A stretch of 64,000 nt of DNA from Raja brachyura (GCA_963514005.1 OY740818.1:15314001-15378000), one strand, 5' to 3'. Positions 208 to 63,605 are shown, numbered from the stretch's first letter. Notes: generated by a model not told the origin, from the letters alone. Translations and numbers: made by a program.

Positions 208-436
208 TACAAATGGGGGAAGGTTCCTAAGCTGATAATGATCTGCCAGGAGCCTAAGTCCATGTTTCTTTCACAGCACATAACCAAGGGTGGTTAGTCA
301 GCTCCAAGAATGTATTGAGTGATGGCAAAACTTAGTTCTGCAAATCAAGACCTGCACTAATTAAAACATCTTGTTTGCTGTTTCCTTTCCATTCAATCCC
401 AATTTATGGGATATCATGCACTGCATACTGCTGTAC

Positions 437-531
437 CTTATTAATGCTTTTTCTCCAAAGTATTCTCCTGCTTTTAATTTCTTAATTTCTTGCGGTTCTT
501 CATCTCCCTCTCGTGTCTGTGTCACCTGGAC
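437..531 (-). CDS. prkg3: PRKG2-like coding exon 7 (CNB-B)
   Basis: 95 nt; gaacag|VQVTQTREGDEEPQEIKKLKAGEYFGEKALI|gtacag. Confidence 0.93.
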
Positions 532-3500
532 CTGTTCAGGATCAATAAAACCACAAGTGCCCTCACATCTTTCAACAGCAGATAGATACAAATGCACATT
601 AACAGAAACAACTTCTATTTCAGGACAACTTGTCACATTGCTAATTGATAGTCTGGCAACAAGGCAGTTATTGCATTTGTGTCTTTCCTCTCTTATCATC
701 ATCATCATTGTTGAAAACATCAAGGGGCATGGTGCCTTACAATACCGTGTAGGACAGTGATCGCAACTTCTACTGAAGTGGGGATGGCCATTGGCTCGCT
801 AGGAGCTCATCTGCCCTTTGACAAGTCTTGTTTTTGGTCTGGCTGGGGGTCCACAGCCCCTTCCTCACCTGGCAAACCAGGTGGGGGAGACATTTTAGTG
901 GCCGTCTATCCGACCATGGAGCAGGTAGCACGGGACTACATCGTACCCATGGCGGTGAGAACTCCCCCCAACCTGACCTCTCTTAGATTGCAGTGAAAAA
1001 TGATGCAAGACTTTGAAAATGGCTTCAAATAGCACATTTTAAAATGAACGTTGGGCATTAGCACATAGGCATCTGTGGTACACTCAACAAACAAAGTCAG
1101 TCGGTTTATTTTGGTGGTTGGATTGTGGAGGAAATTTGACTAAGGAATGTCCTTGCACTTATTTATGGTTTTTACACACCTTACAAACCCACGCTGCAGA
1201 TTGCACCACCAGAAATGCAAAAAATTGCACCCACTCTTACATCAATCAATCAGTCTAGATTATACGATCAAGATTGGAATGCAAGTTGGTTCATTCATTT
1301 AATAATACACAGACAACGGAGGCAAATGTAGTTATTACTAAAAGCAGTGTACTAATTTAGTAAATCCTCCAGTTCAAAAAGAGATTCAAGAACTATTGCC
1401 CTTAGCGGCATCACATCTCATAGCAATGGGACTCCACAGATAATTCATGAATATACATCATCTCCTACCTTTCCTTTTGCAATAATGAAGAAGGTGCTAC
1501 CTTGCTCTCCTTGACGAATTATATAATCGCCCTTATCGTAGTAATCCTAGCAGAGATGGAGAGATTGAACATTACTACGCCATTGAAGGTAGATATAAAA
1601 AATGATGGATTAGTCATAGGAATAGATATGCTATTGGCATAATTTGCAAGCCTGTAGTAATCTAGGGAATATAAATATTTTGTTTATACTCCATAGTACT
1701 AGGCTCCTCATTGCTACAAATTCTAACTCATTGACTAACTCAATGCCTGTCCTGAAAAGCCCAGCTAGTTTAGCTTAGTTTAGGTCATTATTGTGTGCAC
1801 CCAGATAGAGTAAACAGCTTTTTTGTTGGAAAGACAATACATGATTACAATCAAGCTGGCCACAGTATACAAATACATGACAAAGGCAATAACGTTTAGT
1901 GCAAGATAACGTCCAGAAGAGTCTGATTATACCTTTTTATTATTTTTTCAAGGGATGTGGGCTTTGGAAGTTGAGGTTACATGGAACTACCCATTCCTGA
2001 ATTTTTTTAAGTTGCTGTGTTGAAGCTGTACTGAAACAGCATGGACATGGGAGTGGCAGGTTCTGGAGTACAAGCTTTAAGCACAATTGTCGGAATGTTG
2101 CCAGGGCTCGTTGCCTTTTATATCACATGCAATGCATTGAATTGGCTGCAAATTGACATCCATCATGCTGGGAATCACTGGAGGAGGTCAAGTTGGACTA
2201 TTTAGTTAAAGTGTTCAATAGGAGCTAGAAGTAGTATTAAAATGACTTTATCAAATCAAGCTGAAAGAACCTGCATTGGCCAGACATTAAAAAAACCCTT
2301 TCATATTGAAATCTTGTGCTATTGGTGAGCACAAACTATACAAGTGTTTCTACTTCTAGTGTTTGATATAGATGTTTATAGGTGGCCCTTTGGTACCACA
2401 ACAGCAATATATGTAAAGAAAAGAGTAGATGCAAGGAACTGCATTTACAAAAAAGACACAATGTGTTGGAGTAACGCAATGGGTCAGGCAACATCTCTGG
2501 AGAATGGGGATAGGTGATGTCTCGGGTTGGGACCCTTCATGCAGATTTTTTTTTAGAAAATTGGGGAAATTTGGCAGTTGCTCCTTTGATGCCCCGATAG
2601 CAAGATGAACATCCCAATGGTCTTTAACATAATCAAAAACCCTTACAGCAAAGGAAATGGTATCACTTACAGCAAATGGTATCACTTACAGCAAATGGTA
2701 TCACTTTCTTCCCTCTACTAACTGACGCTGAAGATTTACTTTTCAACTTTGAAGGCCACAATTTGATATCTTGACAAACTTAACCCTGAAGAATTCCCAA
2801 TAATTTTGGTCATCTACATATCTGCCGGAGAAAAAGTGCTCCAGCTTTATTGGTTTATTATTGTCACGAGAAATTTGCCTATATGCTCTCCAGTCAAATC
2901 ATACAATACTCGAGTACAAAAAGTGCAATGAGGTAGAATGGGAGATCAGGACAACACCCTCCGCTTAATAGAGGATAGTTTAGCTTATCTGGTGGTATGG
3001 GCTTTCAAGCTTTTGCATCTTCTTCCCTATAGAAGAGTGAAGAACAGGGAACGACAGGGGTTTAAATGGCCTTTGGTTAAATTGGCTACTTTCCCAAGGC
3101 AGAGTGAAGTGCAGATGGAATCAATGAGGAAAAGGCTGGTTTGTGTGATGGACTGGGCTACATCCAAAAATCTCTTGCGATCTTGGCCAGATCTGTTGGC
3201 AAACCAAGTTGTGATGTATCCCAATAAGATGCTTTCTACGGCGAGGAGACCCTTCACACAGACTGAGTGTGTAGTGAGTGTTCTTCCTAGTGACCAAATA
3301 ACAATCCATTCACTTGACATCTCTGAGGTTGGAGACGTTTAGCCAACAAGGAATTTGATATCTGACTTTGTACTTTGTTCTTGTGACAACAAAGGGGGAA
3401 GATGACAGAATTTTATTGCCTTCCATCACAGGGAGGACTGTGGTGGATGTCTATGTTAAACTTTATTTAATATGCTGTGTATATTTTTGCTTTTTTACCT

Positions 3501-6500
3501 AGTGTGGCTGCATGGTAGCTCAAATTCCACTGTACCTTAATTGGTACATGTGACAATTAAATTGAATCATGAATCTTGAATGCTTCTTTAAAAGCCCATA
3601 AATGTGTCAATTGGAATTCATGATTGCAACATGCCACAATATTAGTACATCCTGAGTATAGTCAAATATGTTCTTGAAAAACCTTCAAAGCTAAAGAAAA
3701 TGTACTCACAACTTCAAGACAATCAACAATCTTGGACAACTTCTCTTCGGGCAAGCCTTTCAATATCGAAACACTGCATAATAAATATACAAATGTTTTT
3801 AAAATTGCATTATGTCAATAGAAACCTATTCCACATCCAGCACTAACAATAAGTTCTGAATTTATTCAGCTCTGTATATAAGCATAACACATTATTTTCT
3901 CTACTCGGAGACCCTAGCTATCTGGGAAAGTACCTTGAGATGGGTTTTGGGCAGATGGATTGGATGCAGCTTACAGCAGCACAGGGCAGCAGTAGAGGAC
4001 ACTGACATCATTGCCAGGTCAGTCAACCCCCCCTTCAATCACTGATCATTAATAGAAAACATTAATAATGAATGTTATTCATTGGATGGAAAGAAATACA
4101 GTGCTTCCCCCCCCCCCCCCCCCCCCCCAATCTGAGATTGTAATCAGGATTGCTGCTTTGCTTGCCATATATTAATGATTTAGGCTTGGGTGTAGTGGGC
4201 ACAATTTCCAAATATGTAGATGATAAATGAAACAGAAGCATGCGGGGACGATGGTAATGGACTTTAAGATAATAAGGACAAGCAGGTGGAATGGTGGACA
4301 CATAATGGGTGAAACTCGCACAGAAAAAACATTTCAGCATGAGGGATAAAGACAGGCAATGTAGGCTAAATGATACTATTTCAAAAGGGATAACACAGCA
4401 GAGGGATCCAAGAACATATACATGTGTGTACATCATTGAGCAAACCGAGGGAACAGCTAAAATGTGTACAGGATCATAAGGACACAAGGTCATGCGTAAT
4501 AGGAGCAGAATTAAGCCAATTGGCCAATCAAGTCTACTCTGCCATTCAATCATGGCTGATCTATCTTTCCCTCCTAACCCCTGGGTTCTTGGGCTTTATT
4601 TATAAATATAATACAAAAGGTATAATACATTGTCCTATCTGGGACACATGACAATAAAACTCTCTTGACTCTTGAAAGGTATAAATAAGGATTCATGATG
4701 AACCTTTATAAAACACTGGCTCAGTTACATTTGGAGGGTCTAAGGAAGGATGTAGAGATGAATGGCTGAAGCAGCCGGGGCTTCCAGCTCTCACCTGCTG
4801 AGGAAGTTGAAGTATTTCCTATTCCTCGCCTGTGCTGTTTCCATCATGATGCTTTGGAAAACCTGACGATCCAGAACCCAAATCCAAGACTCTGTCACAG
4901 CTGAAACAGTTACGGGCGATAGATCAGTGAATAAATATTGAAAAGACCAAATCATAGTTATAGATTAATTTTTGAGAAGATTGATATCTCTGTAATCTAA
5001 CTATAAAAGGAATATTTCAAATTTTCCCTGATTAGCTCGCACCAACACCATGGAACCTCTTCACCTGTCTAAAGCATGTTAGAGTTGAAACCTTCCACCT
5101 GAGCTGGCCAGCTGGTTGGCTCTCTGAAGTGAGATTGTCTTTTAGATTCATAGAGCCATGCAACATGGTAACAGACCCTTCGGCCCAACTTACCTATGCC
5201 GAACAAGATGCCCCATCAACACTAGTCCCACCTCCCCATGTTTGGCCTATATCTCTCTACATTTTTTTCTATCCATGTTCCTGTCCAGATGTCTTATAAA
5301 TGTTGTTATAGTACCAGCCTTAAACTTCTTCTGCCAGCTCATTCCATATACCCACTGCCCTGTGTGAAAAACTTGCTCCTCAGGTTCCTATTAAATCTTT
5401 CCCCTCTCACCTTAACCCAATGTCCCTTATTCTGGATAAAATACTCTGTTCATTCACCCTGTCTATTCCCTTCACGTTCTTATACATATCTATAAGATTA
5501 CCCCTCATCCTCCTGCGCTCGAAGGAATAAAGCCCAAACTTGCCCAACCTCTCCCTATAGCTTAGGCCCTCAGGTCCTGGCCACATCCTTTTAAATCTTC
5601 TCTGCACTCTTTCTAGAGTAACAATATCCTCGGTTCCCCAACCCACTTGCCAGGTTGATCACGATCCTGCTGTAATTTTGATGACCATCTTCTCTATCTA
5701 AAATACCACCCACTTTAGTGTCATCTGTAAACTTACTATTTGTGCATTCTACATACGCACCCAAATCATTGATATAAACCACAAACAGCAGTGGGCCCAG
5801 CACCGATTCCTGAGCCACACTATTAGTTACAGGCCACCTCAAAACAACTTTTCATCATCATCCACTTCTTCCTTCCATGAAGCCCATTCTTTATCCAGTT
5901 GGCTATCTCTCCCTGGATCCCATGCAATCTAACCTTCCAGAGTAACCTCCCATGTGGAACCTTAGCAATGCTTTTCTGGTCCATATAGATGATGTCTACA
6001 GTTTTGCCCTCATTGACCTTTTTGATTACTTCTTCAAAAAATTCAATCAGATTTGTAAGACATATTTTCCCATGTACAAAACCATGCTGACTATCCCTAA
6101 TCAGCCCAGCTATATAAATGCATAAATATCGTATCCCTTAGAATACTCTCTTGCAACAAGGCCTTTCACAGATATTAGGCTCACTGTTCTATGTTTCATT
6201 ATATTCTATATTCTTCCACCATTCAATGCAGCATCTAAGATTCTTCCCCAAAAGAAGGTACAACTGTCGTGAAGTTCCCCAAAGCTGTCTGTGGAATTTT
6301 CTGCCTCAGAGGGCGGTGGAGGCAGGTTCTCTGGATGCTTTCAAGAGAGAGCTAGATAGGGCTCTTAAAAATAGCAAAGTCAGGGGATATGGGGAGAAGG
6401 CAGGAACGGGGTACTGATTGGGGATGATCAGCCATGATCACATTGAAGGGTGCTGGCTCGAAGAGTCAAATGGCCTACTCCTGCATCTATTGTCTATTGT

Positions 6501-9500
6501 CTGAGGTTAAAATCTGTCACCTTGGATGGGAGACTTCTATGAAAACTGTTGGGTAAATTAATTAATTCATGAGCTGACATAATATAATTATCGGTTGTTG
6601 TCAATGAAAAATTAAGATTGTAGTTATGTGCATACCAAAGCTGCCCACTTTGGTGTGCACCAATCAGAACTTGAAATATAAAATGTAGTGCTAATCTGTG
6701 ACATTGTCCGCCTTTGTCATTACGTCATCCATTCATGCTCACACCATCAGGATAGGCACGGAGTCCATCATTAGTTATAGATCCTCAGCTTGACATACTT
6801 ATTCAGTTCGTTGGTGCAGAATTTGACATTGACATTGATTGGATCAGAGCAGCTTCTCCACATCACTCCCAGTTTGCATGTCAGCTCTGCACTTACAGAG
6901 AGAGGAGAGGAGTGAGAGAAAGACCAACACTCACAGAGATCAAGCTTTCATTACCTTTAACAGTAGCAGTCCTTTTGCAGTTGTAGAGAATTGCAAGCTC
7001 GCCAAACGCTGTCCCTGGATGCATCTGTCCCAACAGTTTGCCATTCTGCATAACTTCCAAAATCCCTTCTGTAAAAGTATAGTTAAAATTTAATTGCAGT
7101 AACAATCAATGTTCAAAATTAAATTGTGTAGGAAGCGAACTGCCGAATTATACCGAAGATAGACACAAAATGCTGGAGAAACTCAGCGGGTCAGAAGAAA
7201 AGGAATAGGTGATGTTTCAGTTCGAAACCTTTCTTCAGATTGAAAGCAGACACGGTGTTGCAGAATTCCCATCAGAGAGAAGATGAGAAGTTCCTAAAAG
7301 TAGGCATATCTTGAGGAGATATCTCAGTAGAGCAGACAAAACGTGTAAGAAAGAACTGCAGATGCTAGTTTTTACCACAGATACCTCTGGCTCTCAGTCT
7401 GAAGAAGGGTTCCGACCCAAAACATCACCTATTCCTGTTCTCCAGAGAAGCTGCCTGACCCATGAATTACTCCAGCATTTTGTATAAATGTTCAAAGTTA
7501 CCTCAATCAGAGACTGAGGTAACGTCAGGCTGCACTGGATCTCTAAATCTCATAACAGGTGCATTACTTTAAATTAGCTTTCATTATTGCACAGTCCACT
7601 ATCCAATTTTATTTTAGCTTTGTTCGGCTTCATTTTCAGCTTAATGATTTATTATACAATTAGCAATGAACACCACAGAATCAGCACCATATAGAGAATG
7701 ATTCAGCCCAAACTGGAGCTTGTTGGTGCTGCAGCAACCTCCTCCTACTTCCATCTTTTCAAATCAAAAGATTGCTTCTCTGTCACGAGTGTTTAGGCAG
7801 CTTTTTCTTTTATGAACACAATCACCTCAACTATTCACCATTAGAATAGATTTCATATTCTCATCACTCTCTGGGTAAAGATTTTGCCTGCATACCCTTC
7901 TGGATGAACTGTGATAGTTTCATGTTTTTGACCTTTAGTTCTGGACCTTCAGATAAGTGGATAAATCGTTTCAATGTCTGTCCGATTAAGCCACTGCTTT
8001 GTTTCATAGATCTCCATCATATCCCTTCTCAATTATTCCTCTTTAAAATAAAAAGCCGCAAAATGATGATTCCAGTTTTATTTTATAACTTAAATATTCA
8101 GGAATTCCACGAAGGAGCCAAAGAGAAATGTATAAAATTATGAGAGGCAAAGATAGGATATACAGTCAAGACCTTTTTCTCAGGATGGAAAAAAAAACAA
8201 ATACTTGAGGGAATAGTTTTAACGTGAGAGGGGCAAAGTTTAAAAGAGACAAAACGGAACAAGTGATTTTACACAATGGGCCGTGGATGTATGGAACTCA
8301 CTTCCGGGGTTGGTAGTGGAGGCTGATACAAAAGTGGCAGTTACTGTAAGATTCTTTTAGACAGGTACATGGATATGCAGGTAATAGAGAGATATATAAT
8401 CAGATGAGATTAGTTTATCTAGGCATATTGGGCAGACATTGTGGACCAAAGGCCTGTTCCTGTGCTGTACTATTCTATGCTCTATATTCTATGTTCTAGA
8501 TCATACTGTACATTGTCAGTTATCCAATTAACAAACAACAAGATCATTAAAACACATAACAAGAATATGGAACCAGGGAACATTATCCTAAAATCAAAAC
8601 CAATTAAGGAGTACTTAAAGATAGCGGAGTCATGGGATATGGCGAGAAAGCAGGAACGGGGTACTGATTGTGGATGAGCAGCCATGATCATATTGAATGG
8701 CGGTGCTGGCTCCAAGGGCCGAATGGCCTACTCCTGCACCTAGTGTCAATTGTCACATACACACAAATGGTGAAAACTTGGAATCTTCTCAGAACCCTGG
8801 AGCTATGAAGACTGGAGGATGGATTTTAATGGATGTTATAAGGAGCAAAGTCAGGTTCATGAAGGTGACACGCAGATCGGCCTGAAGGACAGGCACCCTT
8901 TGCATCAAGCTTCAATACAAAGAGATAGACACAATCTGCTGGAGTAACTCAGCGGGACAGGCAGCATCTCTGGAAAGAAGGAATGAGTGACCTTTCGGGT
9001 CTAGACCCTCTTCAGACTGAGAGTGAGACGAAAGATATGGAAGGGTAAGGTGTGAAAACGACAGATCAAAGCAGACGATGATCAAGGAAGTTTAGAATGG
9101 TTCTAATGGTTCAGTATGATGAGGCCCACCTGCCAGAACATAGAGGTGGTTTCCTTGCTCTCCCTCCTGGATGACGAGATCTGTTTCTCGGTAGCTCCTC
9201 TCGTACATACATTCCACTATCTCCCTCACATGCTGCGGCTCCAGCTTCTTCAGGAATTCATTGTGCATTATCGCATCCGTTATCAGTTTCTTCAAACTGC
9301 ACAATATAATACTCAAGTTATCACAAACATCCCTGGGGGTAATCATCACAAAAACATTCCACGTACATTACCCTCCTGTGGTTAGCAATTAACACTGTGG
9401 AAGGGACATTTTTGATTATTCATGTTGAAGACACGAGAGACTGCAAATGCTGGAATCTGGAACAAAGTTCATAAATTAAAAATGTCATAAGTTATAGGAG

Positions 9501-11543
9501 CAGAATTAGACCATTCGATCCATCAAGTTTACTCTGGCATTCATTCATGGCTGATCTATCTTTCTCTCTCAACCCCATTCTCCTGCCTTCTCCCCATTAC
9601 ACCCGAGGGATGGCAAAGATCAAAGTGCCTGAGGATGCTAAATCTATGGAGCAGGCAGCATCTACGGAGGGAAGTGCACAGAGACATTGGAACCTTTCTT
9701 CAGATACTTATTTTTACTGTGCTGGAATCAAATTGAAGGATTGCCACCATTGAGATAGGGACAGCCAACAATGAGGAGCACACGTGTTCGTTGAGAAAGT
9801 GGCAAAATGCTGGAGTAACTCAGCAGGTTAGGCAGCATCCCTGGAGAAACGGGACAGGTCCAGACCGTTCTTAGACTGGTCATTGTTTCTATTTGCTCTT
9901 TGAGGGTTTTTTTCTATATTTAATTCAAACTCATTATGAGAATCAAGATATCACCAGAACAAGTTCATATAGTCATATACAGTAGTCCACCCCTCCACAG
10001 CCATGAGCTTTTGTTAAGTAAACAAACTCACAATTCTTTATGCATGGGCCTGAGGAAAAAATACAAGTCATTGATTAAATTATCAAACCCTATGGGGCAG
10101 CCCGACGTAGTGTAAGAAAATTAGAAATACATGTTCTTGCCTTTACTCTTCAATGTTACTCTTCAATACAGGGACCTTCATGTTCCAAAGTATTTTACAC
10201 GCAATCTGGTACGTTTTATAGTACTTATGTTGTTATGTTGGACAAACTATTATTTAAGGACAACAGACAGCGGTCATATGATAAATTACATAAAATGAGG
10301 ATTAATACTATTATGGATTAATATTGACCTGGATACTAGGAAACATGGTAATCAATGTGCTGTTTCGGGACAATGATGTTTGAGTGGAAGAAGACAGCTC
10401 CTTTGTTCTTGTGCTTTTATACCAGAAAAGTAATAGTTTTTTTTTAATGTCACTGAATCTGGTCTGCAAGAAATCTCTAATCATTCCTCCTGCAGAATGG
10501 GGAGAATCTCAGAGTTACAACCTCTTAGTAATTCAGCTAACAGAATGCATATTATGGTTCATTTCCAACCATTAAATTGCAGCCTTTAGATTATTGTCTG
10601 TATTTATTCTGGATTCAAACATATCTTGCTATCAATTTGAAAACGAGACTTCATTGTTCAGTATTTGCTCAGTGTTTTGGTTTTATAATCTTCTGTAGCA
10701 ATGAAAGCTAAACATTCTGCTGATGATTCTCAAACCAGATAATTAGTAATTCTGAGATTTCTACAGTGCTGTGACCAACCTGCAGGTAATTAACTGGGAA
10801 TGTCTAGGTTGCCTTAAAACTATACATGTCCATGCAAACTGGAAGTATCTGGTACTATGAGCTCACACAATCCCCAGCCAAGTTTGAATTTGTGTTAAAA
10901 TTGTTGCAATTAACCATGTTGCTTGAGGAGAAAGTATGATGCATAAATAAGTACAGAAATTATCCAAGCGAATGATGTGATTGCCTTCTATGGTTGTCCT
11001 TGGTATGAGGAGCATGTTTGGTTGAATGGGTTGTATTTCTCCCACACCGTGCTGAAAATCTAGCTGCTCATTTGCTGGGCCAGGTGAGGTTCTTCGCTCT
11101 TACCTGGAATCCTTCCGTACTCGAAGCTGCTCGATGGAGAACTTCTGCACACTGTGGCAGTAATAATTCCGGGAGGTCGGCTCCGCTGACACTCCCTCTT
11201 TGGCCTTGAGGCGTCGGTGGATCTCAGTAGCCACCTGGGCAAAGCGTTTTGGCCCTTGGTTTATGACACTGACCAGCTTCCTGTGTTGGTTGGCAGAAGT
11301 GGTATTGTACCCAATGGCATCCTGAAGCTTGCCGATTTGGGAAAGTTTCCCTTTAAGTTCTTTTTCCAGCGACTGTATTTTCTGCAACTTCTGCCTCAGT
11401 TGCTCATCCTTCATCCTCAGTTCTTCTTCTAGAGTAACAATCTTCCTTCTGAGGTTGTCCAAATTTTCCAAGGAGGTGTCTGTTGGGGTATGGGGGGAGT
11501 TATGCTGTTCAGGCCTTGATGCTCTCACAGAACCGTTTCCCAT
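437..11543 (-). CDS. prkg3: cGMP-dependent protein kinase, PRKG2 subfamily (probably paralog prkg3); 5' part, 7 coding exons, continues beyond window start
   Basis: Seven GT-AG exons splice in frame to MGNGS...leucine zipper...AKEGVSAEPT...CNB-A (FGELAILYNCKRTATV)...CNB-B (FGEKALI). The protein is collinear with PRKG2; the paralog assignment is inferred from divergence and adjacency to COL13A1. Confidence 0.8.
695..985 (-). mobile_element. GC-rich structured insert, possibly an RTE-derived short element with (ATG)n tail
   Basis: (CAT)4 at ~696-708 on plus; several hairpins; composition distinct from flanks. Confidence 0.4.
1469..1546 (-). CDS. prkg3: PRKG2-like coding exon 6 (CNB-B)
   Basis: 78 nt; ctgctag|DYYDKGDYIIRQGEQGSTFFIIAKGK|gtagga. 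Confidence 0.95.
2655..2707 (+). repeat. 19-bp tandem repeat x~2.7
   Basis: aaatggtatcacttacagc units. Confidence 0.9.
2850..3290 (-). mobile_element. Rex1/Babar LINE 3' fragment
   Basis: VESILLGYITTWFANRSGQDRKRFLDVAQSITQTSL...HLNPCRSLF resembles the Rex1 ORF2 C-terminus; gtgacaataataaa 3' end. Confidence 0.8.
3710..3773 (-). CDS. prkg3: PRKG2-like coding exon 5
   Basis: 64 nt; tatgcag|SVSILKGLPEEKLSKIVDCLEV|gtgagt. Confidence 0.93.
4165..4750 (+). mobile_element. Degenerate CR1 fragment with nested short insertions
   Basis: Remnants of YINDL / KFADD-like codons; inverted CR1 3' UTR piece at ~4490-4580. Confidence 0.55.
4795..4900 (-). CDS. prkg3: PRKG2-like coding exon 4
   Basis: 106 nt; tttcag|AVTESWIWVLDRQVFQSIMMETAQARNRKYFNFLS|gtgag; not in ORF track. 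Confidence 0.93.
5148..6150 (-). mobile_element. CR1 LINE fragment (degenerate RT)
   Basis: ORFs SVLGPLLFVVYINDL, KFTDDTKVGG, LERVQRRFKRM...ERRRMRGNLI. Confidence 0.9.
6286..6502 (+). mobile_element. CR1/HER1 3' end
   Basis: LWNFLPQRAVEAGSLDAFKRELD...GYGEKAGTGY plus 3' UTR and (TCTATTG)n tail. Confidence 0.88.
6955..7068 (-). CDS. prkg3: PRKG2-like coding exon 3 (CNB-A phosphate-binding cassette)
   Basis: 114 nt; ttttacag|EGILEVMQNGKLLGQMHPGTAFGELAILYNCKRTATVK|gtaatg. Confidence 0.95.
7122..7486. mobile_element. Inverted pair of hammerhead/Penelope-type repeats
   Basis: Minus copy ~7125-7240 and plus copy ~7395-7485; TSD aatgttcaaa(a/g)tta at 7108-7121 and 7487-7500. Confidence 0.75.
8110..8745 (+). 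mobile_element. Two CR1 3'-end fragments
   Basis: CR1 C-terminal remnants, ggcctgttcctgtgctgtactattctatg tail, second GYGEKAGTG-type 3' UTR at ~8620-8745. Confidence 0.7.
9130..9296 (-). CDS. prkg3: PRKG2-like coding exon 2 (start of CNB-A)
   Basis: 167 nt; gcag|...LKKLITDAIMHNEFLKKLEPQHVREIVECMYERSYRETDLVIQEGEQGNHLYVLA|gtggg; phases match neighbours. Confidence 0.95.
11104..11543 (-). CDS. prkg3: PRKG2-like coding exon 1 (myristoylation motif, leucine zipper, autoinhibitory region)
   Basis: ATG at 11543 in gcaATGg context; MGNGSVRAS...RRLKAKEGVSAEPTSR...RVRKDS; donor AG|gtaag at 11104; upstream acceptor ttttgtcag near 11597. Confidence 0.95.
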
Positions 11544-13799
11544 TGCATGAATATAAATCATCCCAAAGATCTCTCAACAGATGCCAAGCTGGGCTGCTGA
11601 CAAAATAAAGCAAACAGTCATACAGTAGAATATTGTTAAAACACAGGCAGCTGATATAGTGCTTCTTAAAACTCTTTAGCAGGTTATTTCTGGTTCCATT
11701 AACAATTGCTTCATCTTTGCAAATGACACAGTGAACAATTAGACTAAAACATATGTGTAAAATTGTCACCAAACCTTAGCTTAAGATCCAAAGGGCATTA
11801 CTTAGTTGATTAATGGGGCGTGCAGTCCTCTCCAGCATTTCCATGTGCCAGGCTGCCAATTGTTTCTAATGTAGAAAGCATGGTTGACACATTGCTTCGC
11901 AATAGCAGTGTGACAATGATGATTTGCTTTTGGTCCCTGGGTGACAGATGAATATTGGGAATGCGTTGGGGAAAAGGAGGTTTAATGGTCTAAGAGTTTC
12001 AGACTTGCAATAACAGTTATTTTTCCCAATGGTTTTTCCAAAATTAAAGGTCTTTTTAATAGTTAAAAGTTTATTTCTTAGTGTTAGCTAAAGATTATTA
12101 AAGCCAATGGTTAGCAAATGATGGGAGCTAGTCACTGGTTTCTCTATTATCATGTGTACCAAGGTACAGTAGGATACTTTTATGCATACAGTTCAGCTTT
12201 GACTATCACCACACATAAGCATAATCCCCAGTTAGTACAGAAGATTTAGAATAGCCCACTGAGTCTACATGCACGAGTCGCCATTTTGGCGCCATTTTAC
12301 AGCCCCAGCTGTAGCTGGCCACAAAGGTTCATTGTAGCCGTCACCTCAATTCTGGTTGTCCCATGAACCATTGTCCCTCTCCTTGCACGGCCCTCTTCAG
12401 CCCTTGTTCTCTGGCTGTTTCATAGAATATCATGTGCATAGTTTTTAAGGTGAGAGTGGGAAAGTTTAAAGGAGATGTGCGGGGTACATTTTTTTTCATG
12501 CAGAGAGTTGTAGGTACTTAGAATGTGTTGCAGGGGAAGGCATTTAAGAGGCATCTTTGGATGGGCACATGGAAATGGGAATGAAGGAATATGAATCATG
12601 TACATCAGAGAATAGATTTTACTTGGCATCATGTTTTGCACATTGTGGGTCTTGTGCGGGACTGTTCTACGTTCCGTGTTCTATGAAGCAATGCATGTCA
12701 TTTTCAATGACCTCTCGTGATGAAACTGATATCTCGTGATGAAAGAAATTGTTAAGAAACGCTGGTGTCTGATTACTTTGTGGAGTTTATATGAATTAAG
12801 CCATTTTTTAAAAAAGAGAACGTGAAAATAAATATATGCAACATTTTAATTAGATCAAAGGTCCTGAATACTTCTAGGTCAACCACTATGAAATAGATAT
12901 AAAATGTGGAAAAAACACACCATATAGTTACAGATTGCTTAACTTGGAACTTATAAAACAAATGTTCAGCTACTCAGTAAAAGGACAATATGTGAAAGAA
13001 TATATAATGAAAGGATCTATGATATCTGTAACAAGGTTGAATAATTTAGCATTGAAGATTAAAGTGGAAAGGTTTGAAGAACGTATTTCAGACTAAGTGT
13101 TGTTAGAATTAGAATCTATTGGCCCATTTGCAATTGAGATTATACACTGTTCAAAGGGAAAGATGGATAAATATTAGAAGTGCAAACCAATCTGGAGAAA
13201 CAATAGGAGAGTGAGATTAGTAAAAGGGAGTTGTATGGAGCCGACATCATGAGATAAACTACTCAAACCTTTAAGACAATAGAGAAACGACATCAAAACC
13301 CTTCAACGTGTCAAACGGGGATGAAAGTGATCTTTAACTCTTCTCCCTCCAGGGGAATGGTTGTGAAGATACTTCTCCACAAATCCAAAATAAAGTATCA
13401 CTGCAGGAAGGGAAGGATGGAGGAACAGAAGATCATCAATCTTTGGAATTCTCTACTCCAGGAAGCTGTGCAGACTGAACAATTGAATCTACTCAAGGCT
13501 GGTTCTTCATTTAGGATAGCAGGAAGGTCAAACTTCATGAGGAAGATATGAGAAGGTGTTGGAGATTAGAGCAGATGTGGTCTTATTGGACAGTAAGGAG
13601 CAGGCTCCATCCAATCCAGTTTCTTGTATTACTTTAGATGGGAGACTAAGGGGAAGATGATGTGGTTGCAGGGAAAGGAACCAGAATACTCAGGGGGATA
13701 CAGATGTAATGGGTTGTATGTGTACAGAGACATAACATTCTGAATTTCCCTGAGGGGTTCAATAAAGTATTTATTATTATCATTTATTGGTAAATAGTG

Positions 13800-16872: not shown

Positions 16873-18636
16873 CAAGGAACAAGGAAACAGATATAGATGG
16901 GGAAATAGCCAAGGTAACCAGGTTAGTGTACAAAAGTGGCGGAGTCGCCTCCAAAGGTCACACACTCTATCTTTGGTCCAAATTCTTTGGTTCTGACGAT
17001 AACTGCAATTGTGACCTTGAAGGAAATTATACTTTTAATACTATTGGCTGCTCCAGGGTTCAACAAACATGTGCCCCATTTACCTTTCACAATTGCATTT
17101 CCAGTGAATAAGACTGAAAAATGGTCCCCATCGAAAATGTCGCCCAGCCATTCCCTCCACTGATGCTGCCAGACCCGCCGAGCTACTCCAGCACATTATT
17201 TTTCCTCAGCATTCCAGCATCCACACTAATCCTACACTGATTCCATTTTAATTCCCCTATTTCCTGTTAGTTGCTCCAGATTTTTACCAGTCAGCTATGC
17301 ACTAGGGACAATTTACAATGACCAATTGACCTGCCAACAAGTAGTTTTCCATACGCCAGGTTGCTGTCTGATTCATCTCCCACCCTATTGAAGACTTTGT
17401 CTCTGGAACTGATGCGCTCTAATGCTGGGAACACTATTCTGCACTTTGTGTCTTCTCCTTTGCTTTACCTATTTTACTTGAATTTAACTTGAATGTACAT
17501 ATGTATGGTATATCTGATCTGTTTGGGCAGCGTGCAAAACAAAGTTATTCACTGTACCTTGGTACACAGACAATGAATAACCTAAACCTAATCTTTGGTC
17601 CAGAGTGGCATCTGTTAACTTCAAACACGGTGCTCAATGCTTCAACTGCAGGAAAGTGCATCTAGGGCTTTTCAATGTTCACCTTTTGAAGATGTAGGGG
17701 AAACACAGCAGGAGATCTGCCTTTCAAAGACAAACAGCAGTGCACATTCTTCTGACTAAAGGAAAGGTGAAATATTGTGCATGGAGCTGCTATGACAGTT
17801 CAGCTCACACTAAATTTCCATGATGAGTTCCGCATGTTCCGTCTGCTTTGAAGTCTGGGAGCATCAGCCCTCTATTTGCATTTATCTTAATTCTTTCTGA
17901 AAAGTCTACAGATTCCTTCCTCCTATCGAGGCAAAGACTTAGGGTTGACTTGATGGATGATTTGTGAATAGAGGTTGCATCTAACATTCGCTTGCGTGAA
18001 TTATTTAGATTTACTGATAAGAGACACTCTGTGAGGCGATCGTGAAGTGGACATCAGCAGGGGCCCACCCCATTCCCATATTGGAATTATTAGCAGGGTA
18101 CGACATTTCACCAAACTAATTAAAACTGTTCTGAGGCAGGCATAATATCTGTAAAAACTACTCGTCCAAATAACGTAACGCAAACTTCTGGAAGAAGTCA
18201 GTGGATCAGGCTGCATCTGGGGAGGAAATGGTCCGGCAACATTTCATGTCCAGACCCTTCATCAGACTGAAAGGACAATGAGTCTGAAGAAGGATTTCGA
18301 CCCTAATTGTCACCTGTCCAGCCCCTCCACAGATGGACCGGTACATGGACAGGCCAGGTTTAGAGGATGTAGGCCAAACGCAGGCAGGTGGGATAATGTA
18401 GATGGGACATGTTGGTCGGCGTGGGTAGGTTTGGTCGACGAGCCTCCATCCACGCTGTATAACTATGACTATGCAATGCTGAATTCCTGCAGCACCTTTG
18501 CTTGAGATTGCAGCAACTGCAATGTCTTGCAGACCAAGTAGCACTAGATTTTTCTGCCGATTTTTGTATTCCACCTAATATTATGTCACAAATCCTCAAT
18601 GACTAAAGTTCACAGTATAAATTACAGAATTAGGTG

Positions 18637-19203
18637 AAATTCAGTCTGAAGAAGGGTCTCAACCCAAAAGTCACCCCTTCCTTCTCTCCAGAGATGTGGC
18701 CTGTCCCACTGAGTTACTCCAGCATTTAGTGTCTCTCTTTGGTTTAAACCGTTCCTTCCTACACATTTTGTCTGCTCCACTGTGAAATCTCCTCAAGGTG
18801 TTTCTTCTTTGAAGAAGCTCTTCTCTTCTCTCCGACGAGAGTTCAGCAACATCCTGTCTCGCTGTTCCCCCTCTGTGATTCCTCCTGCTCGCTGACTCGA
18901 CCACCACGTTTTAACCCGGTCTCACTACCACAGCCATGTTTGTGTTCTCGGTGCTTGCCTGCGATTCCATCTTCTAGCTCGGGGATTCCAAATCCGGTTC
19001 CAGACCTCGCAGTTCGGACCCAACCCAATTACAGACAGTCGATCTGTCGCTTTTCGCAACAGTTCCCATTCCGTGCCCTGCGTTCCACACTTGCTGCGAT
19101 GGATTAGTCTGAAGAAGGATCGCAACCTGAAACGTTACCCATTCCTTCTCTCCAGAGATGCTGCCTGTCCCACTGAGTCACTCCAGCATTTTGTGCCTAT
19201 CTT
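18637..19203 (+). mobile_element. Retrozyme-like unit: two direct hammerhead-bearing repeats flanking a ~340 bp CpG-rich core
   Basis: Repeats at ~18643-18765 and ~19106-19203; 12-bp TSD cagaattaggtg at 18625-18636 and 19204-19215. Confidence 0.65.
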
Positions 19204-19834
19204 CAGAATTAGGTGGAGCACAGGTGATGTTTGCTGCAGGTTTTAAATGTCAATGGCAGAGAGCAAATGTTAGCTTAGCTAACCTAGGTTTTAGATAACG
19301 TAGCTTTCATGCCTTGCCCAAAAAGGCATAAGAAGAGGGAGCAGCAAATTGAATGTTAAATCTTTTCCCCTTCACCTTAAACCTATGTCCTCTGGTCCTT
19401 GGTTCATCTTCTCTAGGCAACAGACTGTGCATCTACCCGATCTATTCCTCTCATTATTTTATTCTCATGATTATCATGATTCAGTAGTCAAAAACTAGGC
19501 TTAGAATACATTGCTTCTCAGTTAGTTGTCCATGGCAGTGGCATTGTAACTCAACCTTGTATTTTATAAGGAAGGTGGAAGAGTAGATATGATTTTTCCC
19601 AAGATTGGAGAGGTTTTTAAGTCCTTTGCTATACTTCACTTAACATGTTCTTCCATTTGCAAAACACAAACTGCCGGAGGAACTCAGCGGGCCAGGCAAC
19701 ATCTATGGACGAAATAGACATATGACGTTTTGGGTAGGGTCCCTCCTTCAGACCCTGGGCATCAACAGCGTTCACCTGCTCTTTCTCTATTGACCATGAT
19801 TAATAAAGAAACAATGGGGTGGAATTTCATTTTT

Positions 19835-22589: not shown

Positions 22590-23850
22590 AGGTGGTCAGA
22601 TACAGCCAGCATATGAAAGGTGAAGCATGCCTATTGAAAAACTGCCACGCTTATGAACGTTACGGCAGTGCCTTTTTGAACTGCTGCAGTGTGCATGGTG
22701 AATGTGTTCTCACCGTTTTGAGGAAGTGCGTTTCTGGATATTGATGAAGTGGCAGTGAAGGAGCAACAAAATTATTTCTACATCAGATAGGCCGTGATGG
22801 ATGGATACTAGTTTGAAAAGATGAGGAGGTGTAGCCTTATGTTTGCTGTTCTTATCTATTTGGGTAGTAAAGGTTGTGGTTTGGAAGGTGTTCTTGACGT
22901 CGTGGTGAGTTGTTACAGTATATCTTGAGTCAATAGTACGTAAATAATGGAGTGTCTGTTTGGGGTGGGGGATGGGGTGGCAAATAAATGGGCTGCTTTT
23001 TCTTGGATGGTGTTGCTGCTGAAATGTCATTGTAGCTGCATTCATCGAGCAAACAGGAAAGCATTCTGAAAGATAGACGCAAAATGCTGGAGGAACTCAG
23101 TGGGACAGGCATCATCTCTGGAGAGAAGGAATGGGTGACGTTTCGGGTCGAGACCCCTTTTCAGACTGATGTCAGGTGAAGATGGGTCTCAACCCGAAAC
23201 GTTACTCCTGCATTTTATGTCTATCTTTGGTTTAAACCAGCATCTGCAGTTCCTTCATAGGCATTCTGAAAGGTTCTGGGAATTTGGCCTCAGCCAGATT
23301 TTTTTAGCCGCAGGATTTAGATGACTGGTTGATTTAAGTTTCTGGTCAATGGTGCTTGACAATATTGTTGATGAGGACTAGTTATACATAATACTAAGTG
23401 TCAAAGGGATGTCATCAGAGCCTCAGTTGGAGCTGGACATTGTCGGCCACATGTGGAGCAACCATTATTATTTATTACCACACTCCTGAATGCTGGTCAA
23501 GTTTTCCTGCATGTAATTAGAGACTGGTTAGGAGAAGTAAGAAGCATAAATTAATTTTATGCAATCATCACTGAACAATCCAACTTCTGACTTGTAAAGG
23601 ATGGAGGGTGTTAGAGCTGAACAATTTGGCCTGAGACAGTACCTTGAGATGCTCTCACCGTTACGTCTCGATGCTGAGAGGTAACACCCACAAAACAATT
23701 CCATTGAGGTAGGACAATAGGAAGGATTTTTCCCAATGCCCATTAACCTTAATTCCTTGCTGTACAGTTGGTCAATGGTGGCCTTGTTGCCAAGATCTGG
23801 GGTTCATTAACCTTGTCAAGAACCAAATTGAGCATCAGTGAGCAGCTTGA
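22590..23850 (-). mobile_element. Highly degenerate LINE remnant (CR1/L2 type) with nested hammerhead-family repeat
   Basis: Degenerate RT-like codons (GLFSDDCI in ORF 23528-23743) and LINE-like 3' end. Confidence 0.45.
23073..23260. mobile_element. Inverted pair of hammerhead/Penelope-type repeats
   Basis: 12-bp TSD gcattctgaaag at 23061-23072 and 23261-23272. Confidence 0.8.

Positions 23851-26599: not shown

Positions 26600-63605
<37,006 letters not shown>

Follow-up and report, generated by a model that had tools for sequence, protein, structure and literature searches.

A probable dead, internally deleted Penelope-like element with two hammerhead repeats in Raja brachyura, and its proposed origin by a reverse-transcriptase template jump

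Introduction

Penelope-like elements (PLEs) carry in their pLTRs a minimal hammerhead ribozyme, which has a bulged base before stem II, a G10.1-C11.1 pair and palindromic positions 15.2-16.2, has no helix III loop and needs a partner for its helix III (PMC4209133). An optional tail of 30-40 bp is typical of these elements, for which partial tandems and inverted copies are also described (PMC8557442). A study of PLE reverse transcriptase (RT) reports that the tail corresponds to two internal RT start sites, that insertion is independent of hammerhead cleavage, and that in vitro the enzyme starts internally with no need of that cleavage (PMC11167929). Transcription of Penelope starts inside the upstream pLTR, and the formation of tandem pLTRs is left open in the same report (PMC2377424). 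In Adineta, internally deleted, pLTR-flanked inserts have target-site duplications (TSDs) of 8-10 bp, and an internally deleted PLE derivative with a 10-bp TSD is described in that source as well (PMC3846280).

As a criterion for non-LTR retrozymes, a preprint asks for two or more tandem units in succession, with a complete hammerhead in every unit. They have been reported from one chondrichthyan genome, with a mean length of 363 bp and ties to PLE pLTRs, and the preprint proposes, but does not demonstrate, that retrozymes originate from PLEs (bioRxiv 10.64898/2026.07.22.740005). Retrozyme circles are highly self-paired (PMC7229834). Literature listings on PLEs and retrozymes in sharks, skates and chondrichthyans, and on non-autonomous PLEs and solo pLTRs, gave no title on the family studied here, which the supplementary tables of the preprint may include. 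The supplements of PMC8557442 and PMC4209133, in their accessible parts, gave no match to the motifs of the family or to shark or skate names.

Here, we analysed a 64,000-nt stretch of the genome of Raja brachyura (GCA_963514005.1 OY740818.1:15314001-15378000; hereafter the window), which contains on its plus strand, at 18625-19215, an insert of about 590 bases with two hammerhead repeats. We argue that this insert is probably a dead, internally deleted PLE that arose in one insertion event, by a template jump of the reverse transcriptase.

Results

The insert lies between exact 12-nt direct repeats, CAGAATTAGGTG, at 18625-18636 and 19204-19215. Since no empty site was seen among the contigs listed, calling them a TSD rests on their position, their length and a null test, in which 20,000 pairs of 31-nt segments were drawn at random from the window and 5 of them had an exact match of at least 12 nt. 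Between the direct repeats lie, in this order, a pLTR, the tail, a leader of 34 nt, some 101 codons, four bases of junction and a second pLTR. Three A residues next to the left TSD (18637-18639) are likely to be untemplated filler. Repeat 1, a pLTR segment that begins 5 nt before the hammerhead core, occupies 18640-18740 and is followed by the PLE-type tail (18741-18765), delimited by alignment to window copies, contig ends and 3'-end clusters. The tail, about 35 nt long in the form typical of the family, has here a private 10-nt deletion after 18750; in each of four sequencing runs some 1,500-1,600 loose contig ends at 18750 continue with the missing letters. The leader from tail to ORF start (18766-18799) is in common with 7248-7356, and the now decayed start of the family ORF, ~101 codons long, extends over 18800-19101, as placed by phmmer, tblastn and paralogous contigs. 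Four bases, GATT (19102-19105), join ORF codon ~101 to repeat 2 and are likely to be the point of the template jump; paralogous pieces end just before them, at 19096-19101. Repeat 2 (19106-19204) is a pLTR segment running from 2 nt before the core to the first, tail-less 3' end, and the first 1-3 nt of the right TSD (CAG) overlap the end of the element (C[G/A]G).

Aligned over 18643-18740 and 19106-19204, the two repeats are identical in 85 of 99 columns (86%) at a spacing of 464 nt, which is also the distance between the predicted cut triplets, GTC at 18670-18672 in repeat 1 and GTT at 19134-19136 in repeat 2. The core of repeat 1 (18646-18672) is broken, as G12 reads A and the C of the ACGT palindrome is gone. 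In repeat 2, CTGAAGA and GAAA of the core are retained; stem II is weakened by a G.U at the base and one A.C mismatch. The triplet of the family is GTC, and 19136 reads C instead of T in ~94% of the aligned contig depth.

The motif fits the minimal type I hammerhead of PLEs (CUGANGA, a bulged base, stem II, GAAA, palindromic 15.2-16.2 and NUH), and having no helix III loop it is not the canonical type I with helix III. The window contains 13 matches to the core pattern CTGANGA-N10-16-GAAA-N1-2-TH where 0.66 are expected, and none of 100 shuffles reached 13; repeat 2 is among the 13 and repeat 1 gives no match. Over 23 aligned copies, stem II is 91% paired and two of its four pairs are changed on both sides. 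Only 4 of 500 shuffles reached the covariation score of the stem, and yet the support is modest, because 414 of 500 equalled the count of pairs changed on both sides. Single hammerhead regions folded no better than shuffles, as expected of a minimal motif, and an Rfam search of the whole window at E<=1 returned nine matches, none of them a hammerhead.

An earlier reading made from the sequence only (hereafter the sequence-only reading) had described two direct hammerhead repeats of the minimal type enclosed by a 12-bp TSD, with a decayed core in repeat 1, the core CTGAAGA..GAAA in repeat 2 and cut sites at ~18672 and ~19136, about 464 nt apart. All of these features are present. That reading also held the copy to be probably inactive, and the broken core of repeat 1, the weakened stem II of repeat 2 and the decay of the ORF point the same way. 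As the core of repeat 1 is broken and helix III of a minimal hammerhead forms only with a partner, the insert is predicted to give at most one cut and no 464-nt monomer. When that monomer (18673-19136) was folded as linear RNA, it reached -100.9 kcal/mol against -106.7 for shuffles (z +0.94), and 82 of 100 shuffles folded as well; the folded copy is decayed, and its ancestor may have differed in self-pairing.

The spacer between the repeats has a CpG observed/expected ratio of 0.89 and a GC content of 52%, compared with 0.34 and 40% for the window. It had been noted as CpG-rich, which it is, and as a unique core with no convincing ORF, which it is not. Its first 109 nt recur at 7248-7356 (78%, E 2e-20), and paralogous contigs at 80-90% identity span the whole of it in all four runs aligned. 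When 18797-19024 was translated (one TGA read as X), a phmmer search of 1.84 billion proteins gave 10 at E<=0.001, the best at 1e-12, and most of these matches begin at protein residue 2-3. The tenth, P0013, was set aside as a spurious match to a repetitive protein; of the nine homologues looked up, eight are named proteins of sharks or rays. With P0007 as query, tblastn placed residues 1-75 on 18800-19024 and 80-103 on 19030-19101 (E 5e-16).

The position equivalent to the ATG, 18800, aligns with Met1 of the shark proteins, and a copy at 7307 starts MPTFRNFSSS with its ATG at the equivalent position. In the insert the start reads GTT, a TGA stands at 18893-18895 and the frame shifts near 19025-19029. 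Paralogous contigs have A at 18800 and G at 18802 in ~90% of their depth, giving ATG where the insert has GTT, and carry insertions at 19027-19029, the site of the frameshift. The ORF, now broken, accounts for 302 of the 464 nt of the unit. Judged by these comparisons, the spacer is the tail, leader and ORF N-terminus of the element itself rather than a unique core or captured host DNA.

The part of the ORF that would encode RT and a GIY-YIG endonuclease is deleted in the insert, and none of the following searches linked the ORF to either domain. No Pfam family was found on any of 11 proteins, and the homologues are truncated gene models. A word-indexed protein search with the 76-aa spacer translation gave none of 22 candidates, and a nine-sequence alignment run against proteins of 838-2390 aa for longer relatives gave none among 8,000 scored. 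Residues 1-155 of P0006 matched 3 of 392 proteins, none with an RT. ORF-related loci were not found in metagenome, viral and GTDB contigs, and a DNA-pattern search of the viral and GTDB contigs had 0 matches; the lone metagenome match to the DNA pattern, L001, is of only 31 nt and was taken as chance. The PDB sequence search with the ORF gave nothing below E 0.2 and the ESM Atlas no usable match. The AlphaFold model of P0006 (pLDDT 61.5), all-helical over its N-terminal 150 aa, had no Foldseek match at E<=0.001. In a shifted frame, one of six proteins was compatible with a PLE motif, and 15 of 300 shuffles of that protein were compatible too, so that this hint is weak. Assigning the ORF to PLEs would therefore draw on the hammerhead, the tail, the inversions, the TSDs and the layout, together with our assumption that shark PLE ORFs begin like the N-terminus encoded in the spacer. 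The same N-terminus is contained in two NCBI gene models, P0004 (mucin-2-like) and P0014 (prostatic acid phosphatase-like isoform X1), which are misannotated or exonised transposon sequence.

The repeats belong to a very high-copy family. A BLAST search with a window copy, its upstream sequence and the tail gave 27 aligned pieces, and a looser search 33 rows, some of them double, which together span 2,810 nt (~4.4% of the window). With the reference row and another truncated by the window end removed, 3' ends, counted from core C3, fall at +88..+101 in 14 of 25 pieces and at +127..+135 in 8 of 25, with landmarks 35 nt apart. On the same scale, 5' ends fall at -8..+2 in 15 of 26 pieces, including both repeats and the junction of a second insertion at 7123, described below; the clusters at both ends may in part be alignment drop-off for older subfamilies. 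Repeat 1 is one of the eight pieces with the longer 3' end, though it runs on, and the insert itself ends at +96, the first tail site. At two other copies, 51544 and 56035, a TSD abuts the 5' point. Inverted pLTR pairs are frequent. Exact flanking repeats of 9-14 nt were found at 6 of the 19 insertions tested, when 1.3% of random pairs reach 8, and the remaining 13 have no exact flanking repeat of at least 9. With its two 3' ends, inverted pairs and target duplications of 9-14 bp, the family carries the PLE insertion signature, in agreement with the earlier suggestion of mobilisation by PLE machinery.

Three copies, 51453-51549 (minus strand), 52276-52366 (plus) and 56035-56165 (plus), are near-identical and have an intact core; two of them have exact flanking repeats of 11 and 14 bp. 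They are a younger subfamily. When 7236-7380 (minus strand) was compared with 18660-18740, MAFFT placed tail and leader on the stretch that follows the hammerhead, which might reflect an ancient duplication inside the pLTR region.

BLAST and alignment revealed a second insertion of the same build, at 7123-7493 on the minus strand. It consists of an inverted pLTR, then tail, leader and ~19 ORF codons in sense orientation, then pLTR and tail, and is flanked by a direct repeat of 9-10 bp. Its ORF breaks off at nt ~57 and the repeat resumes at -8, a different junction from that of the insert at 18625-19215 (ORF nt ~302 and -2). A junction with one fixed and one variable end is thus seen in both insertions.

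Whether the 464-nt unit recurs was addressed in the window and in contigs. No other copy with the junction of ORF nt 302 to pLTR was found by BLAST in the 64,000-nt window, and there is no tandem array of the unit, the locus amounting to 1.2 units. Contigs came from four runs of four organisms, aligned at 80% likeness, a threshold that misses more diverged copies; the results apply to the 32 pieces and 15 joints listed, out of 487,473 and 1,399 respectively, and cover holes in runs X4 and X8 were not taken as evidence. Among the contigs listed, no diverged one bridges 19101-19106. Those that do bridge it (X1 record 6, X4 record 22 and X8 record 32) are 0-2 letters from the window (99-100% identical), at a depth close to that of unique flanks or of other single contigs. 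Three diverged pieces end at 19096-19101, two of which (X13 record 14 and X8 record 31) then continue unlike the window for tens of letters; all three probably come from one paralogous locus.

Summed contig depth, which is no copy number and was used as a weak hint, is in X1 ~1e7 over repeat 2, 1.7e5 over the tail and 8-14 over the unique flanks, and falls along the spacer as 17,000, 7,600, 4,900, 790, 435, 367 and 537; the other runs have the same shape. The fall hints that a high-copy family of the 464-nt unit is unlikely, while tens of copies are possible, with the 3' part of the spacer at ~30-60 times the unique flanks.

The insert is old. Among the contigs listed, those of organisms A, B and C already carry its junction, and contigs of organism F (X13 records 9 and 15) run from each flank across the TSD into the repeat end with 93-95% identity; since they cover both flank joins, the insertion is common to several organisms. 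X1 record 1, from organism A, lies on 18398-18695. It has gained 12 nt after 18611 and lost 27 nt from 18630 onwards, and this loss takes out a portion of the left TSD and the first hammerhead core; it is a further-decayed allele or orthologue.

Two host genes lie on the minus strand of the window, at 361-11573 and 33097-63605. The former, with a start near 11543, we take to be a cGMP-dependent protein kinase-like gene (Pfam cNMP_binding only at E 0.035), and the latter is a collagen gene (Pfam Collagen, E 6e-9). The insert, on the plus strand, lies between the collagen exon at 33142 and the start of the kinase-like gene, closely flanked by two other high-copy repeats that appear as depth peaks at 18340-18471 and 19352-19483. 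Non-LTR retrotransposon remnants occupy 31260-32594 and 35920-36279 (minus strand), of which 31929-32594 matches Pfam RVT_1 (E 1e-28). Decayed reading frames at 62850-63400 (minus strand) resemble, by motif, a PLE RT end with a GIY-YIG domain; the putative GIY-YIG-like remnant at 62850-63061 has no Pfam match.

Discussion

That the RT changed template was inferred because both repeats and the junction of the insertion at 7123 begin within 8 nt before the core. The junction of ORF to repeat 2 lies ~30 nt upstream of the hammerhead cut site, so that cleavage followed by ligation cannot have made it. We suggest the following sequence of events. A PLE protein acting in trans would nick an AT-rich target, and cDNA synthesis would begin internally on the RNA, at the first of the tail sites (+96 from C3), with an overlap of 1-3 nt with the target; this start would become the right end of the insert. 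The RT would copy ~100 nt back through the hammerhead and stop at -2, where most family copies end. This stop might be the start of the transcript, as the TCAGT before the core resembles, in our estimation, an initiator; alternatively, the RT might stall at the ribozyme fold. It would then re-engage element RNA at ORF nt ~302, copy ORF start, leader, tail and pLTR, and stop at -5, and joining to the staggered nick would duplicate 12 bp. In both repeats, however, (C)AGTCTG is preceded by ATT. Repeated passage of the RT around a circle would be consistent with this as well, and a circular template is therefore possible.

The sequence-only reading had suggested, as one of two explanations, a cartilaginous-fish retrozyme family. 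The host group agrees with the shark and ray homologues, but a retrozyme family does not agree with 1.2 units whose junction is, among the contigs listed, seen only here. A low-copy, retrozyme-like, non-autonomous family would have acquired the deletion once, and its 464-nt unit, cut out by dimeric hammerheads and closed into a circle, would be copied by PLE RT over 1.2 turns at several loci. Its size and the layout of a unit plus overhang fit, as does the ATT upstream of both repeats; non-LTR retrozymes derived from PLE pLTRs are reported from a chondrichthyan genome (bioRxiv 10.64898/2026.07.22.740005), and the depth of the 3' spacer leaves room for some tens of copies. We nevertheless consider this explanation unlikely. 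The listed contigs over the junction include no diverged one, the second insertion (7123-7493) has a different junction, and the discontinuity of the unit is off the cut site. The hammerhead is minimal, not canonical, no tandem array exists, and the monomer folds no better than its shuffles, unlike the retrozyme circles described in PMC7229834.

A second alternative, which we regard as improbable, is that a longer PLE of the form pLTR-ORF-pLTR was inserted first and later lost its RT/EN-coding middle through a deletion at the DNA level. Internally deleted PLE copies are known (PMC3846280) and the insert does carry other private deletions. The 3' breakpoint, however, is at -2, within the 10-nt zone where 15 of 26 pieces and repeat 1 begin; the 7123 element breaks at -8, and a random deletion has no reason to fall there twice. 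The junction, moreover, is already in organisms A, B and C.

That PLEs captured unrelated host DNA between pLTRs, as known in rotifers (PMC3846280), or that two independent stumps flank the spacer by chance, as the density of stumps in the window and the divergence of the repeats (86% alike, no closer than either is to the copy at 23167, at 87-88%) might suggest, is very improbable, since the spacer is contiguous with the tail in the second copy and in paralogous contigs and encodes the start of the family ORF, and one 12-bp duplication encloses everything. This alternative is largely refuted by the recurrence of the spacer, the ORF homology and the paralogous contigs, and the PLE-mediated capture offered by the sequence-only reading gives way to a spacer that is the 5' end of the element itself. 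A plant-type LTR retrozyme was rejected as well.

The template jump is thus our preferred explanation for the insert. As a single locus, 18625-19215 is of small weight, being an old and broken PLE derivative. It does call for caution in retrozyme screens, as a deleted PLE can present itself as a pair of hammerhead repeats separated by a few hundred bases. A wider conjecture, doubtful though conceivable, is that in sharks and rays the PLE RT routinely starts on the 5' pLTR and runs off the 5' end of the RNA, upstream of the hammerhead, after 100-135 nt. The product would then be inserted as a stump, fold into a palindrome or jump to broken 5' fragments of its own RNA. Such a jump would build, in one step, mini-units of variable length with the order hammerhead, ORF start, hammerhead, and might be the birth route of animal non-LTR retrozymes, of which 18625-19215 and 7123-7493 would be fossils. 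If junctions genome-wide are fixed at the 5' edge of the hammerhead and variable in the ORF start, run-off and template jump would explain stumps, palindromes and mini-units together.

Compared with described systems, the insert resembles plant LTR retrozymes in having two hammerhead direct repeats around an internal region; theirs are type III hammerheads with PBS/PPT and 4-bp TSDs, whereas here they are of the minimal type I with a TSD of 12 bp (PMC4918200, as described in PMC7229834 and bioRxiv 10.64898/2026.07.22.740005). With animal non-LTR retrozymes (PMC7229834; bioRxiv 10.64898/2026.07.22.740005) it has in common two type I motifs a few hundred nt apart, a long TSD, the lack of an intact ORF and a PLE-related repeat. 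It differs from them, as they are described there, in that its hammerhead is minimal and one of two cores is complete, and in that it is a 464-nt unit whose spacer, at 52% GC, is PLE coding sequence rather than a non-coding body. Nor does it form a tandem array, show a multi-copy sign among the contigs listed or give a highly self-paired monomer, and with 1.2 units and an incomplete core in repeat 1 it does not amount to two tandem units with complete hammerheads.

The likeness is greatest to EN+ PLEs such as Poseidon_Ac of Anolis (PMC11167929) and Pen1-3 of Adineta (PMC3846280), which like the insert have a minimal type I hammerhead in the pLTR (min-HHRs, PMC4209133). Common to both are also two 3' ends at a distance of 35 nt, pLTRs in direct and inverted arrangement, TSDs of ~9-14 bp, a pLTR and tail running into the ORF start, and insertion ends away from the ribozyme cut site. 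By analogy with these elements, the insert at 18625-19215 would work like a non-autonomous PLE derivative.
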